Part shown: in pieces, positions 52,906-61,030 of the stretch
Position numbering within the stretch: the stretch's first letter is position 1
Layout of the letters: each line of letters opens with the position of its first letter
NCBI RefSeq assembly: GCF_032191835.1
Contig: NC_083237.1
Location: 18,662,001-18,726,000 of the forward strand
Direction: 5' to 3'
From: Heteronotia binoei
Lineage: Eukaryota
DNA length: 64,000 nucleotides
Notes under the pieces: model-generated
Databases searched by the model: none
What the model was told of the DNA's origin: nothing
Seen by the model: only the letters and a program-made list of their open reading frames with translations
Program-made: the position numbers and the translations under genes

Positions 52906-53210
52906 CTCTTTTGAGTTATACAGGGACAAGAGTGACCGAGCTGCCAGCCCACCAACCCACAAACTATCTGCTAAGAACAATCAGGAGGTAGGCAGGAGGC
53001 CTACCTAGAGATGCCAATCCCTAGGTGGGTGACTAGCAAGGGAGCCCCTAAGGGTTCTGTGACTAAACCAGCCTCCAATATAATCAACAAATTCTCATAG
53101 AAATTTATAAAGGAAACATAAACAACCACTTAAAGCAGTGAATTGTACATAAGGTGAAGTCATACAGTATGCACAGTCCTTTATAAGGACAAAATTAGGT
53201 GAAGTTATAT

Positions 53211-53632
53211 TGCCCCGACAGTCGAAAGACGAGACAGACACAGGTGTTGGATTATAACCGGGCCGCTTTATTAAATCAATTAACCTGTAAACTCGGCAGG
53301 GATAAGACCTATCAGAACAAGCCCTGGGGTCACCCTTGACCCCGCCTTGTCCTAAGGGCGAGCACCCCTGCCCCCAGCACAAACCCGCCGTAATTCGGGT
53401 TGTAACTGAGCGGCCAGGCCCCCAGCCATTCTCCACCTGGGCTAGCATCGATCCCCATGGAAAGATCCGCCCAGGTGAGGCTACCCGTGGTCTGCATTCC
53501 CCGCACTGAGCTGTGTAGCCCATCTGCGGTTCATACAGACCACCCGCACCACTGGTGCTAGGCCATAGGGGCTCCCCTGCAAATCCTGTGGGGCTCCCCT
53601 GCAAATCCTGTGGCCAAAACATCCCCCAGCCA
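53211..53632 (-). repeat. Split direct repeat B2 (422 bp; B1 is 53985..54384, 400 bp)
   Basis: Direct repeat of 53985..54384; B2 carries a 22 bp tandem duplication ggggctcccctgcaaatcctgt. Confidence 0.9.
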
Positions 53633-53812: not shown

Positions 53813-53984
53813 GGAGACGACAGACAGTCTGGGCGGAGCCAGGGCTTATAAAGCCCTGACCACGCCCCCCAACAGCTCGGGAGCATCCGACTGGCGGTCT
53901 GCTCCTCCCTTCATCCGTGGGGGCAAAGACGGCACCCAGCTTGATCGCGGGCGAAGCCGGCTTAGCTGGGAAGGTGCCGAGCCT
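53813..53984 (-). repeat. Split direct repeat A2 (172 bp; A1 is 60233..60404)
   Basis: ggaga..gacagtctgggcggagccagggcttataaag..gaaggtgccgagcct present at both positions. Confidence 0.92.
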
Positions 53985-54412
53985 TGCCCCCACAGTCGAA
54001 AGAAGAGACAGACACAGGTGTTGGATTATGACTGGGCCGCTTTATTAAATCAATTAACCTGTAAACTCGGCAGGGATAAGACCTATCAGAACAAGCCCTG
54101 GGGTCACCCTTGACCCTGCCTTGTCCTAAGGGCGAGCACCCCTGCCCCCAGCACAAACCCGCCGTAATTCGGGTTGTAACTGAGCGGCCAGGCCCCCAGC
54201 CATTCTCCACCTGGGCTAGCATCGATCCCCATGGAAAGATCCGCCCAGGTGAGGCTACCCGTGGTCTGCATTCCCCGCACTGAGCCGTGTAGCCCATCTG
54301 CGGTTCATACAGACCACCCGCACCACTGGTGCTAGGCCATAGGGGCTCCCCTACAAATCCTGTGGCCAAAACATCCCCCAGCCACCGCCAATGCCAAGCC
54401 TCTGCTTAGGCA

Positions 54413-55003
54413 TTAGCGCCCCACCGGGCGGCCCAGAGCCGACCGCAAACCCTGCCGAATTTCTTCCAAAAAGGCCCGGTTGCCCAACTCCAACAGGTGG
54501 ACACCATCCGGCCGATACAGGTCAGCATCCTCGACCCGTATGGCCGGATGAGGCAGGAACAAACCCAAACCACCCTCCATGGCTATCTGAAGAGCCCTAT
54601 TAACCTTGCGCCTAGCGCGCTCAATCCCCCCAGGCGAAAGGGCATACCTCCACACCCTGCGTGGCAGAATAGCAGACCACACTAAAAGCACCCCCGGCCA
54701 TCTCCATCTGATTTCTTGGAGATCAGCCAGGGCCTGCTGCGAGAGAGCCTTCCCTCGCAGCATCCCAAGGTCGTTCCCGCCCAAATGAACGACAAGGATG
54801 TGTGGAGGCCTGCCAGCCCTTTCCCTGAACAATAGGGGCATAATTCCGGGCCAACGTAGGCCCCGCCGTCCCAGCCATTCCACGACAGCCCAAGCACTGA
54901 GCCCCAGCTGGGTACCAACTGAAGACCGCCGAGCTTGATGGGCAGCCCAGAATACCATGCTGTGCCCACAGATGAGAATACGCCGTCTCTCACCCCGAGC
55001 CAC
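54413..55003 (-). CDS. SGNH/GDSL-type hydrolase (esterase) of the Ngaro element, open frame
   Basis: Block I ILICGHS, block III VVHLGGNDL, block V DGVH; frame begins at GTG and the first ATG lies after the catalytic Ser. Confidence 0.85.
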   Translation of the reverse strand: MARGERRRILICGHSMVFWAAHQARRSSVGTQLGLSAWAVVEWLGRRGLRWPGIMPLLFRERAGRPPHILVVHLGGNDLGMLRGKALSQQALADLQEIRWRWPGVLLVWSAILPRRVWRYALSPGGIERARRKVNRALQIAMEGGLGLFLPHPAIRVEDADLYRPDGVHLLELGNRAFLEEIRQGLRSALGRPVGR

Positions 55004-55100
55004 AGCACCTGAAAAGACAGAATAGTGTTAAACCAGTGAATCAAAACCAGTAAAGCCCAAATTTGAATGACCTCTAACTAGGCCACCAATAGGCACCCTT

Positions 55101-56166
55101 CTAGGCCAACAACGGGCGCACATATGTCTTAAAGGCCGCTGACCGCCATCTCCCAATCCGTTGAATAGTGGATGGCGTGTAATCCATTGAAGCCGCTGTG
55201 GAGGCAGCTCCAATGCGAAACGAATGTGTACCAAATTTGACCCCCCTCAGGCCAATGGCAGCCAATGCTCGACTCGTCACAGCCCAAAACTGAAACTTGG
55301 TGAGCGGGGATCCATCCTCGTGCAGGAAAAAGGGGCCCTCCACACAGCCCCGGACCTGAATGTAATGTGTAACTGCCTGCACCGGACATAATTCCTGTAC
55401 CTCACACGGACCAATTGTTATGATGGACCCCCGCTGCCTCTGGTCAGTCTTGGACCGCCGTAGCGTCAAAATGATCTGCCCCTGGACCATTTTGACATCC
55501 CCGGCTTGCAGCGCCCGACGGGACACGTCGGTCTTGGATTGCAAAACTAATTCGCTGATGCGCAACGCGCCAAAAAAACGCCAACAATGATGCCGCGTGA
55601 AACAACGCGGCCTCAAAAGGAGAAGAACAAATAACAGGCCAGCATCCAAACAACCCCTTCAAAACAGCAGGGGAAATGGGCTGCCGATTGTCAGAACACG
55701 GGCCACGCTCCCTGGCCCAACCCTCCAACATCTTCCTAATACGGAAGTCGGACGTATTGTCCACAAACCCCTGGGCTTTACTCAAAAAGGCCAAAGCAGC
55801 CAGTTGGCCCCTAATAGTCCTAAGCCCCAAACCCCTTTCCTTCTGGGAAACGCTGAATTGCATAATGTGGGCCGTGGGAATCGGCCAGCAATCCGGCAAA
55901 TCAGCCGCCCTCCTGAACTCCCAGAATTGGCAGGCCGCTCTATTGTAGGCCCTTCTGGTGCTAGGCGCTAAAGCCAACTGAATGGCCCTACCGGCTTCGG
56001 CTTCCCAAGCTGCCATAGCTCCCATGGCATCAGCGCCGGCCGTGGGTCCGCTTCTGGGGCGAGCTGCCGAAAACGCTCCATCTGTTGACGAGATAGAGCG
56101 TCTGCCACCCCATTGCAGACACCGGGTACATGCCTCGCCGTGAACAAAATGTTCAACTGGAGGCAA
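55101..56166 (-). pseudogene. Tyrosine recombinase, one +1 frameshift in the A7 run at 55572..55578
   Basis: LAPSTRRAY N-terminal domain; (L)RISEL, KTDQ, HSFRIGAAS, GRWRSAAFKTY (R-H-R-W-Y catalytic set). Confidence 0.9.
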
Positions 56167-58332
56167 CGTAGCGTAAAGGCCCTAACCAGATTCATCACCA
56201 CCTTGGATTTTGAGGTCAAGGAGTTGATAACATGTACCACTGCCATGTTATCACACCAGAAGAGCACAGAATGGTTGGCAAGCTGCTCACCCCAGAGCCA
56301 AACTGCAACAAGGATAGGGAAAAACTCCAAAAATGTCAGATCCCTCTCTCTCGGCTTGACTTTGCGAACGAAGATTTAAGAAGGGTACAATAGTCCACGT
56401 CTGCTGCAGGCTCGCTGGTGGCTGACAAGACCAATGCGGGACAGGCAGGTCCGGCCACAGTGGCTGCAGGGAAAAGTCTGATTTAGGGTTGGTGCTGTAG
56501 CAGTGCGATTCTTCCTCAATCTCCTTTTGTCCTCAAGACCAGCTATGCGTGCGTTCTCAAAAGAAGAGACAGCCTGGTGGATGGTGTGCCTCCATGCTTT
56601 GCGATCTGAGGCTAGGTCAGACCACTGGTGATGGTTGATGCGACAGGTGCCAAGGGATTTCTTCAAGGAGTCCTTGTACCTCTTCTTTGGTGCCCCTCTA
56701 TTTCGATGGCCGGTGGAGAGTTCGCCATACAGGGCAATCTTGGGAAGGCGGTGGTTTTCCATCCTAGAAATATGCCCTGCCCAGCGCAGCTGCGTCTTCA
56801 ACAACAGTGCCTCGATGCTGGTAACCTCCACCCGCTTGAGAACTTCAGTGTTGGTCACAAAGTCACTCCAGTGAATGTTGAGGATGGTGCGAAGGCAGCG
56901 CTGATGAAAGCGCTCAAGGAGTCGCAGGTGATGACGGTATAAAACCCACGATTCGGAGACGTAGATGAGGGTTGTCATCACAACCGCTTTGTAAACATTG
57001 ATCTTTGTGCCTTTTTTCAGATGCTTGTTGCTCCACACTCTTTTGTGCAGATCCCTAATGAGCCCGCTATCCAGCCATTCTGCCGGCCACTGCTCTGCAC
57101 ACCAGTGCCCTCTGAAATAGACTCCAAACCCGGTCGACCCTGAGGCATCGGAGGAGATCTGAAGCTCAGCTTCAATCTTCAAATCCTCCCTCCAAAAGGA
57201 AACACCATTGAATTCCTCTAAAAACCTAACCCATACCTCCAGGTCCGCCCGCATGCCCGCAGATTTCTGGACCCTATGGTGCAGGAAGCGCAACTGGCAC
57301 ATAGCGTCGCAAAGACGCCTCAAAAAGGCCCTACCTGGTGCCACAACTTTGCAAGCAAAGTTGAGGTGACCAACCAACTGTTGCAGGTCCAACAAAGAGA
57401 CCTTGCGCCTTACCATCAGGGCGGCCAACCTAGCCTTAAGGTCGGTTACCTTCGCCTCTGGCAGTCGAGAAGACCGGCTGAGCGTATCCAGCTCAATACC
57501 CAGAAAGGTAAGCACCTTACAGGGCCCCTCTGTCTTCTCGTGTGCCAGGGGCACCCCCCAGCTCATCAGCCAGCCCCTGGAAGGTGCGTAGCAACCTGCC
57601 ACACTGCCCAGTACCCGGAGGACCCACGAAAAGGTAGTCATCAAGGTAATGCGCAGTGGCAGTACACCCAGTCTTGTCCCGTAATGCCCACTCCAAGAAA
57701 GAATTAAATTGCTCAGAAGCTGCGCAGGATATAGAGCAACCCATGGGGAGGGCACGATCCATATAAAATCTGCCCTCAAAACAAAAGCCCAGGAGCTCAA
57801 AATCCTCGGGGTGAACTGGCAAGAGGCGAAATGCCGACTTGATGTCGCATTTTGCCATCTCCGCCCCCACCCCACAACCACGCACTATCTTGACCGCCTG
57901 GTCAAAGGAAGTGTACCTAACCGAACATAGTTCCTCTGGAATGGCATCGTTAACCGACGCCCCTTTGGGGTAGGACAAATGGTGTATGAGGCGGTACTCC
58001 CCGGGTGCTTTCTTTGGCACCACTCCCAAAGGGGAAACCCTCAATGCTGGGACAGGCGGAGTGTCAAAAGGGCCCAGGACTCTGCCCTCTTCACACTCCT
58101 TGGCGATCTTAGCTCGAACAATGTGCTCAAGACCGGCCACAGACCTGAGGTTGGACGCAAAATAAGGGGCCCTAGGCCCCTGAAATGGGATCCTAAAACC
58201 AAATGAAAACCCGTCCCACAAATATTGCCCATCTGACTTACGTGGGTACCTCCTCAGTAGGTTACTGAGTACCCTCAGCCGAATGGGACTGGGACCCTTT
58301 ACCAGGGGGCTGCTGTCCTGCACTGTCACCAC
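55968..58332 (-). pseudogene. RT-RNase H ORF of the Ngaro element, frameshifted at C6 57554..57559 and interrupted by an RTE
   Basis: SPLGVVPKK..YRLIHHLS, KCDIKSAFR, LPMGCS, HYLDDYL, TFLGIELD, SDASG..GFG, LEFFPILVA..WCDN..ADALSR. Confidence 0.9.
56346..57047 (-). mobile_element. 5'-truncated RTE-clade LINE (702 bp) with 9 bp TSD CAGATCCCT
   Basis: KINVYKAVV..SESW..FHQRCLRTIL..QLRWAGH..RMENHRLPK..CSHCGR..H..AC; (GA)n tail; TSD at 56337..56345 and 57048..57056. Confidence 0.92.
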
Positions 58333-59797
58333 CAGGGCGCTTGCCCCCTCCCCTCAGCTTTGATCTACTACAAGCCGACATGGCGTGAGGCCCGCTACAG
58401 AGCGGGCACTCGTGTTTGAACTTACAGGGCTTCCTAGGGCACGCTCCTTTGGAAGCGAACTCCCAACAAAGCATCCGGGTTTGAACCGGCTGGCCCGCCG
58501 CTGGGCAGGCCCCTGTAAGCTGCAGCTGCTTGTGAACCAAATGTCCGCTGTCGGACCTGTCTCCCACATTCGGCTTGGCCGGAGACATCAGCTGCAACCA
58601 GAGCTGTTGGCTGACCTGGTCCCAAGGCAACCCTGGATTGACCGCCGCCCTCATTCGAAAAGCTTCATCATACTGCAGCCAAGCTGCACTGACAAAGTCC
58701 GAGTAAGCCCTATACACTATATCCATGTATTGGAACAAGGCGGCGGCACGTGCTGGCTGAGCCCGGGCAATGACTCCCGCGTAAATTAGAAACCCAGGCA
58801 ACCAGTTTGCCCAGGTCCTATCCACCTTCCTACGCTTCAGCTTTTCTTTCTCTTTCTCGTCAAGCTCGTCCTTGCTTTTCTTTTCGAGCTCACGATACAG
58901 GAGACTAAACATGTCAATGTACTCACCACGCAAAATTTTGTCACACGTGGCGCTCGTTAGGTGATCTCCCAAAGGCAACGAAGTGTCGCCAAATGGGAGC
59001 GCGTGGCATGGTATGTTAGAGTAAGGAACGGGGGGGGGTAAAACCACCCACCGCCAGGCCCCCGGGCCACAGCCCGTGCCACTGTGCATATTGCTGCCCA
59101 CCCCACGGCAAAACCCCTGGCATGGGTGCAACCGTCGCCGCCGCAGAGGTAGACGGGACAGCCTGCTGGACCGGTGTCTGTGGTCCAGGGCTACTCAAGC
59201 CAGCCACCCCTAAACCGGGCCCCTGCACTGCAGGACTCTGCAGGGCCCAGGCCCAAGGAGACCCCGAATCCCAGGGAACAGTGGATGCCCCAGGTTGCCC
59301 TCCGCCCCAAACCCCACTCCCCATCACTGGGGGGGAGGGGTGGCGTCTGCACCGGTCCCCATGGCCAATGTGGTGTCTGTTGCAAAAAACACTTACCCGC
59401 ATCCAAAGAAGGTCCTGCACCATCCGGAGTCTGAGGCACACCGTCCCCCGAGCCGCCGCCAGTCGACTGCTCCCCCGACGGGTCCTCACCAGGATCCTCC
59501 TCGTCATCCAACTGCTGCGGAGGATCAGGTACAGCTGCGCCGCCCTGCAATGCAGACAAACGGGCCAGCATCTCCGCTTCAAACATGGGTCACTTTGACC
59601 GCTCCGAAGCGCGGCGGAGACCCTGCCAAATAGGGGCCCCTGCAGCAACTCTCTGCTGCTCCAACGCCTCCAGCTGCTGGATAATGGCCAACCTAACCCG
59701 CTCTCCCGAAATCAGGCCCAAGTTGCCCGCCACGGCCCCTGGGCGGGCAAGCCGGCTGTTTGCCCTTAGCCTTCCCCAAACCCTTTCTAGGCGTCAT
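58262..59797 (-). pseudogene. Gag-like ORF1 of the Ngaro element (several frameshifts and a nonsense codon)
   Basis: MTPRKG basic N-terminus; MFEAEMLARL; KILRGEYIDMFSLL; WLQYDEAFR; C-terminal CWEF..C..C.FKHEC..C..H zinc finger. Confidence 0.8.
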
Positions 59798-60404
59798 GCT
59801 AACCAAATATTACGGCTAACACCCTGGCCTCACAAAGATGGGAACAAAACTCAAAAAGCAGACCCCCAAAATTGATCGCAGCACACGCATTTGATAATGC
59901 TGAACTTCCAGGCAATGCCTCTCAGCGCTGCCACAAAATGCCAGATGGGGACTCCCAGAAATGACTGCCACCCGCACCTGGCGTAACCAGCCCAACCACC
60001 GTCGCGCCAAAATGGCGGCCCAGCAATGAGCGTTCAGCCGATGTGCTTTAAAATGGCCGCCCAAAGAAGAACTCAGCCGAGCCCTAAAATGGCCGCCCAG
60101 TAACAGGCAATCCTCCCAGAGCACGCGGCTCAACCAAAATGGCCGCCACGCGCGCTTCATGCAGCACGAAGTTCAACCCAATGCCTAAAGCCCACCCGGA
60201 ATCAGCCGCCGCTCGCGCTGTAGGGCCCCGCCGGAGATGACAGACAGTCTGGGCGGAGCCAGGGCTTATAAAGCCCTGACCACACCCCCCAACAGCTCGG
60301 GAGCATCCGACTGGCGGTCTGCTCCTCCCTTCATCCGTGGGGGCAAAGATGGCACCCAGCTTGATCGCGGGCGAAGCCGGCTTAGCTGGGAAGGTGCCGA
60401 GCCT

Positions 60405-61030
60405 AATATGCACAGTCTTTCTTGGGACCAAAAGGCCTCCAAATGGTTTCAGCCAAGAACTGGCAAAGTAGAGTCTTCTTCACAAGTCAAACTGCTGTAG
60501 AAAAAAAGCAAACAGTAGCAGGCAGCTACGAAGGCGGCGCCTCTCTGCCTCCGTTTCTCTGAAGCTTCCACAGGCTGAGTGAAGAAGAGTACAAACTGAG
60601 TATACAAATAATCCATACAAAAATAGTTTCAGATAAACAAATGAACCATTTTACCTTAATGCAAAAGATTACAAAGTTGATAATGGAAATCAATCCTTCA
60701 AGTGCAATGAAAGTTATATTTATAATGTGGTGCTCCAGTGACCATTAAAACCCACTATACAGTCATGAAATAGAAACACATTTACAGGTGTTCAAAGTTA
60801 ACGTGATCATTTAAAGGAGCCACATCAAGTCTACAGATGCTGCAAACACTCATATAAAGCAGGACAAATCACATTCATAGTTTCAACCATTTGGTTGAAG
60901 AGAATTACATTTAAAAATCCAGAATGCCTCACGTTGTAATAACCATTTATTAACATCATTTCTGTTGTATACATTGAAATTGAATTTTTCAATAACAAAA
61001 AATCTTAAAGACTCAGGAGCATGTTTTTTT
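60405..61030 (-). mobile_element. Penelope-like element 3' remnant (continues at about 53050..53210; the Ngaro inserted into it)
   Basis: 60883..61023 translates HAPESLRFFVIEK..LLQREAFWIFKCNSLQPNG, like the C-terminus of Penelope GIY-YIG endonucleases. Confidence 0.7.

Follow-up and report, generated by a model that had tools for sequence, protein, structure and literature searches.

The window analysed here, a stretch of 64,000 nucleotides (nt) from contig NC_083237.1 of Heteronotia binoei, carries on its minus strand, from 60417 to 53210, a tyrosine-recombinase (YR) retrotransposon with open reading frames (ORFs) for gag, reverse transcriptase and RNase H (RT/RNaseH), YR and an SGNH hydrolase. 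We propose that in intact relatives of this element a splice donor in gag is joined to an acceptor ahead of the SGNH frame, which lacks a start codon of its own, and that the donor is probably joined as well to an acceptor that opens the YR frame; we put the probability of this model as a whole at roughly 0.8. Within the family, the SGNH splice is very probably real, and the YR splice is, with less confidence, probable. An earlier note on this DNA had predicted the first splice, with a Gag-esterase fusion as its product; the second phase-1 acceptor, for YR, was absent from that note and is new here. The sites and exons concerned are as follows.

59397..59797, minus strand: Gag N-terminal leader, the coding part of exon 1; 401 nt, frame-broken in the window copy
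59391..59396, minus strand: splice donor GTAAGT, phase 1, in the gag Gly-Lys codons, with conservation across copies
55009..55031, minus strand: SGNH splice acceptor, consisting of a branch-point-like TTAAC, a pyrimidine tract and CAG, with conservation across copies
54413..55008, minus strand: SGNH hydrolase exon (GHS, GGND, DGVH), intact, with no ATG ahead of the Ser
56082..56098, minus strand: second splice acceptor CTCTATCTCGTCAACAG, phase 1 into the YR frame; first exon base 56081, in the RNaseH motif ALSRQQ/M
55101..56081, minus strand: tyrosine recombinase exon (Pfam Phage_integrase E 3e-5, under the cut-off)

Re-examination of the sequence bore out the sites described in the earlier note. 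The donor reads GCGG/GTAAGT with the exon end at 59397 (slashes mark exon borders throughout), the acceptor ends in CTATTCTGTCTTTTCAG with its AG at 55010-55009 and the first exon base at 55008, and the two phases match: the donor is in phase 1 relative to the local SLDA frame, and so is the acceptor relative to the SGNH frame. Additionally, no ATG was present in the window copy between the upstream stop (the frame opens at 55027) and GHS. What did not hold was the Gag N-terminus of 130 amino acids (aa) that the note had assumed, since in the window copy the frame from ATG 59797 is closed by a stop after 34 codons, the 401 nt of exon 1 are out of phase, and the SLDA frame also hits a stop at 59592-59590. 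The RT/RNaseH frame is broken near 57556 and the YR frame near 55575; the sole intact coding exon is that of the esterase. The window copy cannot produce a Gag-esterase fusion from ATG 59797, and because this copy is decayed, the splice claim must be assessed on the family. There, the spliced product of the Gag N-terminus (Gag-N) and the esterase is supported by selection on the sites, by squamate gene models and by one contig, as described below; for the frameshifted window copy, the prediction fell.

We analysed 117 family copies as placed in the assembly, comprising 78 copies and 39 from further families; one additional locus without the acceptor region was left out of the set. The search for relatives of the window element in this genome (G000) gave 2711 DNA candidates, 40 of which were scored, and 11591 protein candidates, 150 of which were scored. 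In the following, L-numbers denote loci and P-numbers denote fetched proteins. The copies share descent, and the counts for site conservation are not independent trials.

The SGNH acceptor was found to end in YAG in 77 of the 78 copies. An ATG between this acceptor and GHS, which the earlier note had regarded as telling against the splice, occurred in none of the 78. The open frame upstream of the acceptor ranged from 6 to 297 codons and was unconserved; a stop lay six codons upstream of the acceptor in 48/78 copies, and eight copies had an in-frame ATG within the upstream open stretch, at unrelated positions and in two cases through internal deletions. A branch-point-like YTRAY preceded the acceptor in 27 of 28 representatives, and C and T interchanged in the tract while the pyrimidines were retained. 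The onset of conservation coincided with the acceptor. In the more distant families, a phase-1 acceptor was present in 35 of the 37 copies with a located motif (two of the 39 had none), and again no ATG preceded the Ser (0/37). The exon itself was open in 71/78 copies, 67 of which retained all three catalytic motifs, and its ratio of nonsynonymous to synonymous substitution (dN/dS) of 0.09, from 55 pairs of 11 copies, indicated purifying selection. In the window, the SGNH ORF matched Pfam Lipase_GDSL_2 with E 3e-7, just under the cut-off, and the predicted model of a relative (P0005) showed an SGNH fold that matched TesA, PAF-AH and the ZfL2-1 esterase. A protein that is under purifying selection and has no start codon requires a leader.

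The donor was conserved as well. Exon 1 measured 412 nt (137 codons plus 1 nt) and ended in phase 1 in 24 of the 28 copies in which both the ATG and the donor were located, and in related families it measured 400 or 415 nt, likewise phase 1. For the selection test, 30 intact gags were reduced to 18 at <97% identity, with pairwise identities of 66-96%. The donor codons were GGT in 18/18 and AAG in 18/18 of these non-redundant gags, with freely variable adjacent residues. Outside the pol overlap there were 18 columns with an invariant Gly, and the donor Gly was the only one of them with a fixed third base; over all four-fold columns of the 18 gags, the third base was fixed in 2/54. Of the 117 loci, 94 had a WPW anchor in gag, and 87 of these, from several families, contained a phase-1 GTRRG 8-15 codons upstream of it, as compared with 3/94 for phase 0 and 0/94 for phase 2. 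In five of the seven misses the anchor used was a second WPW, and these copies do have the donor. Alternative GT(A/G)AG sites in gag (e.g. at 59490) were considered as donors and rejected; they were phase 1 in some copies and lacked conservation. As judged from these alignments, the splice signals in the family are under selection. The earlier note had proposed conservation of both sites and their phase among family copies as a check, and both sites were indeed kept.

We also found proteins in databases that correspond to the spliced form. When 268 fetched proteins were compared with a profile built from unspliced gag N-termini alone, 56 matched that had an SGNH motif but lacked the gag core; two further matched proteins carried YR. 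The 56 Gag-N-SGNH proteins, mostly NCBI models, came from at least seven squamate genera; the hosts included Eublepharis, Gekko, Anolis, Pogona, Elgaria, Rhineura, Hemicordylus and one further gecko. Full-length models mostly had 320-420 aa, and the length predicted for the window family is 335. In two Eublepharis pairs (P0057/P0013 and P0056/P0095), the proteins shared 44-49 identical residues and then split, as predicted, at G/K in gag versus G/AV in the esterase fusion. At Hemicordylus LOC128350441, a Gag-N-YR isoform (X2) and a Gag-N-SGNH isoform (X3) diverged at one residue; listed isoforms are usually backed by aligned transcripts. NCBI records of the two forms include XP_053164754.1 for Gag-N-YR, and XP_053164755.1 and XP_054828286.1 for Gag-N-SGNH. 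P0028 mapped to this genome as two exact blocks (residues 1-126 and 127-277) that lie 3.5 kb apart, with borders at G/GTAGGT and TTTTTAG/ and with the gag core, pol and YR in between. Additionally, P0137 (Gag-N plus SGNH, 394 aa) was encoded without interruption on a Logan contig of 1677 nt, which is too short for the intron, and thus the fused form exists as a contiguous sequence in some run.

Such fusions could also stem from internally deleted, non-autonomous DNA copies instead of splicing. Deleted copies are known (L037, L041, L088, L090 and L093), and the P0137 contig could be DNA, but the P0028 locus retains its entire intron, and the deletions that we observed end away from the splice sites. 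Moreover, two exact junction motifs, probing two families, had 0 matches in the genomic DNA of this genome, which counts against DNA deletions as the source there. We consider this origin of the fusions highly improbable.

No relatives were found among viral contigs, and metagenome contigs yielded three loci, of which only L111, a distant element, was fairly complete; it has phase-1 AGs at both the YR and the SGNH acceptor positions, and its 5' gag part held no testable donor. Matches in the protein atlas were unnamed or SGNH clusters only, from chordates and molluscs. A further group of models (P0114, P0116, P0117, P0196, P0200, P0213, P0226, P0237 and P0238), of which those looked up came from frogs (Eleutherodactylus, Hyla, Rhinoderma, Engystomops and Xenopus), showed a short N-terminal helix with a conserved Trp-Leu, a long low-complexity linker and the SGNH module. 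The squamate Gag-N profile gave no match on the amphibian SGNH models; the helix is likely to be the amphibian counterpart of the leader exon.

A second acceptor was present ahead of YR. The AG before 56081 gives a phase-1 entry into the YR frame and was kept in 73 of 74 aligned copies, and upstream of it the YR frame was open for 9-55 codons only. In two Hemicordylus models, P0121 and P0253, the change from Gag-N to YR falls at the place that matches this acceptor. One gag donor probably serves, besides the SGNH exon, a second acceptor that opens the YR frame.

Several observations weigh against the proposed model. The annotated fusion proteins are computed gene models, the source run of P0137 may be DNA rather than RNA, and the helices predicted in the leader have low model confidence (predicted local distance difference test scores of about 50-59). 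In four of seven available RNA runs, which were aligned to L046, none of the joints listed connected the donor to either acceptor. This was a weak test, with coverage too shallow at exon 1 and a depth of about 0-2 around the donor in the raw-read runs; at least three reads were required per entry, most reads were <95% alike to L046, and both strands were similarly covered. The RNA joints that were listed were set aside as evidence, as they were not GT..AG at the predicted sites. In addition, 31 reads of run X5 continue across the esterase acceptor from the intron side, and they represent unspliced molecules of a related family. For the YR acceptor, no clear branch motif was found, and its CAG doubles as a Gln codon. 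Some Met preceded the first YR helix in 68/73 copies. In the RT/RNaseH frame, silent sites become constrained some 12 codons ahead of the YR acceptor, where the share of the major base rises from 0.60-0.71 to 0.93; this suits splice signals but is also compatible with a frameshift or with YR coding farther upstream.

A rival reading is that the esterase is made leaderless, from an ATG just after the Ser or by re-initiation past the YR stop, with splice signals that are due to chance or serve only rare cryptic splicing caught by gene predictors. In its favour, no junction reads were listed in the RNA runs, GHSM provides an ATG beside the Ser in the window family and in 7/14 models, and the relatives P0014, P0021, P0042 and P0107 have an ATG before GHS. 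However, this Met is replaced in the other 7/14 models, and a start there would drop the nucleophile and the first strand. Also against this reading is the distance from the YR stop to the SGNH acceptor, which varied from about 59 to 92 nt with differing frames among copies with a full YR frame. Since conservation starts at the acceptor and the silent site of the donor is fixed, leaderless expression appears improbable.

Alternatively, splicing could supply the esterase only, with YR reached through a -1 ribosomal frameshift where RNaseH and YR overlap, or translated from an internal ATG of its own; the second acceptor would then be incidental. YR indeed overlaps RT/RNaseH in the -1 frame, the silent-site constraint and the Met residues described above suit this course, and YR is probably made via ribosomal frameshifting according to the 2015 review by Poulter and Butler, in the wording quoted in PMC13003380. 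In contrast, no canonical slippery heptamer for YR was found in any of 34 representatives, and the position of the YR-frame Met varied among families, with no Met at all in 5/73 copies. The Gag-N-YR isoforms at two Hemicordylus loci share their place of joining, and the distant L111 has a phase-1 AG as well. We regard frameshifting or an internal start as the source of YR as rather unlikely, and splicing from the gag donor as the better account.

Eight of the first 25 residues of the leader are K/R and make up a basic head; its other parts are two predicted helices and an acidic linker. A relaxed RhxxhE motif occurred twice in 18 of 20 fusion models, with looser fits in the window family. None of 14 fusion models had a hydrophobic signal-like stretch within the first 40 residues, and 13 of the 14 had no 19-residue window above 1.5 on the Kyte-Doolittle scale. 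The env proteins of retroviruses and gypsy elements come from spliced subgenomic RNA, and such RNAs are known for retroviruses and long terminal repeat (LTR) elements in general; avian retrovirus env retains a few gag codons, and foamy virus pol is spliced. The earlier note had likened the esterase to env, and this likeness would extend to the proposed strategy only, in which a 3' ORF without its own promoter is reached by a splice from a 5' donor. It does not extend to the product; since by hydropathy nearly all of the 14 fusion models lack a signal-like or membrane-spanning stretch, the predicted fusion product is not an env. Unlike env, the lizard leader is a Gag domain of 137 residues, and its donor probably also feeds the integration enzyme.

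According to the proposed mechanism, the unspliced RNA would yield Gag and RT. Splicing of the gag donor with the SGNH acceptor would yield Gag-N-SGNH, with a predicted length of about 335 residues, and splicing with the YR acceptor would yield Gag-N-YR of about 463 aa. The shared leader would then act as an assembly tag by which both enzymes co-oligomerise with Gag on the element RNA. Lipids or acyl esters would be the substrates of the esterase there, a role that has been put forward for the esterase of ZfL2-1 ORF1p. This co-assembly role of the leader is conceivable, although on balance we hold it with some doubt, and the esterase may, as suggested in the earlier note, be targeted to particles or membranes.

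By its repeat and ORF layout, the window element is a Ngaro-type YR retrotransposon. Its split direct repeats are ordered A1 ... B1 A2 B2, an order that recurs in many copies; gag and RT/RNaseH are followed by YR, which overlaps RNaseH, and the SGNH hydrolase ORF (Lipase_GDSL_2 match) lies downstream of YR. No methyltransferase family was among the Pfam matches of 8 ORFs (E<=0.1). The nearest annotated relatives were found in geckos and other squamates, and this genome carries many copies of the family. The remaining features of the element are as follows.

60233..60417, minus strand: split direct repeat A1 (5' end), 95% identical to A2, with a TATA-like TATAA at 60270
58262..59396, minus strand: remaining gag, with a low-complexity part, a conserved core and a Cys/His-rich end; the frame is broken here
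55968..58587, minus strand: RT/RNaseH ORF (Pfam RVT_1 E 9e-6 and RVT_3 E 0.016, both under the cut-off)
56346..57047, minus strand: insertion of the 3' fragment of a long interspersed nuclear element (LINE), which splits RNaseH, with a short flanking duplication
53984..54384, minus strand: split direct repeat B1, with AATAAA at 54046
53813..53997, minus strand: split direct repeat A2, from the repeat comparison with A1
53210..53632, minus strand: split direct repeat B2 (3' end), with AATAAA at 53272

The LINE fragment of about 700 nt, which we take to be RTE/BovB-like from its sequence features, has the same orientation as the preceding pol stretch and is in frame with it. Among 38 copies compared, only the near-identical L031 has the same insertion. 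L031 (G000:C15:18400633-18408533) lies about 314 kb off, is about 99.5-100% identical over the full element length and also shares the broken gag start, and the pair is probably a segmental duplication rather than the result of transposition. Other odd copies were L088 and L090, in which frames run from YR into the esterase through internal deletions, and L097, L101 and L154, in which frames of about 1030 codons run from gag into pol; these frame fusions are probably single-copy accidents.

We compared this organisation with that of known systems. The Xenopus elements DIRS-53_XT and DIRS-54_XT have four overlapping ORFs, including a hydrolase 'with no proven function' (PMC9210276). These Ngaro-like elements share the A1-B1-A2-B2 repeats and the order of gag, RT/RNaseH, YR and a fourth, SGNH ORF (PMC9210276), whereas in the lizard elements a spacer, the end of the proposed intron, lies between YR and SGNH, and the gag donor is under selection. 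Neither 'splice' nor 'intron' appears in the main text of PMC9210276. More broadly, the Ngaro splice is not described in passages of PMC9210276, PMC7192593, PMC6681497, PMC3783388, PMC4495291 and PMC13003380, and we found no description of splicing in Ngaro elements in the literature, where an earlier mention in the reviews by Poulter and Butler (2015) or Goodwin and Poulter (2004), in Repbase or in supplements is possible.

In PMC3905857, the ORF1p of the LINE ZfL2-1 is described with a similar arrangement of a basic peptide, a coiled-coil-like part, a loose linker and an SGNH esterase (PDB 4c1b) that is active and binds liposomes. It differs in being a single unspliced non-LTR ORF with an antiparallel dimeric coiled coil (PMC3905857), whereas the lizard layout would arise via splicing from a gag that keeps its own core. 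The window element is also not of the type in which an esterase-bearing ORF1p is the single first ORF of a non-LTR element, as it has YR and split repeats and its esterase is the last ORF. The ZfL2-1 esterase structure was the rank 6 fold match of the relative's model (E 4e-6, 24% identity), and many unrelated SGNH enzymes scored equally; a special kinship is unsupported on this comparison. In L1 ORF1p, the N-terminus carries positive charge and precedes two RhxxhE motifs for trimerisation; the protein differs from the lizard leader in its long coiled coil, RNA recognition motif and C-terminal domain (PMC5940361). The lizard leader has two short helices about 35-55 residues apart, which is a resemblance only and not a claim of homology.

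The SGNH module was also observed in host genes. TSG101 isoforms annotated in echidna and Podarcis (P0111, P0113, P0263 and P0185) end in an SGNH exon that is about 40% identical to Ngaro esterases and has its catalytic His changed to Leu. The single best match in this genome, L155 (G000:C21:152569810-152570406), was 81-82% identical, and the tandem AG acceptors before it fit two Podarcis isoforms that are one residue apart. This exon has the look of an ancient esterase domestication on an ESCRT-I gene, and the esterase is probably inactive; a literature search for TSG101 with an SGNH exon found nothing relevant. The module was further present, at the end or elsewhere, in other gene models (P0102, P0132, P0123-P0128, P0158, P0169, P0172, P0176, P0177 and P0276): a DUSP12 isoform (gecko), an SPRYD4 isoform (caecilian) and long proteins without a name (850-3100 aa), in some of which the SGNH unit recurs several times. 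The DUSP12, SPRYD4 and long SGNH models may be repeated exon captures or prediction artefacts.

Taken further, these data suggest a wider reading, to which we give slightly less than an even chance. By alternative splicing, one Gag-N exon would lead Gag, YR and the esterase in animal Ngaro elements, including those of invertebrates, and as an oligomerisation tag it would load both enzymes into the particle; this scheme would replace frameshifting for YR, recreate the LINE ORF1p-esterase layout by convergence, and have a phase-1 esterase exon that hosts have captured, as in TSG101. YR expression in YR retrotransposons has been guessed to use frameshifting (as quoted in PMC13003380), and a shared spliced Gag leader would be one concrete answer to how these elements make both downstream proteins. 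It would also account for dozens of lizard gene models now labelled 'uncharacterized', which would be products of the transposon, and it defines actual proteins for expression and assay. Finally, a spliced esterase exon suggests a reason why this module may be easily captured by host genes.

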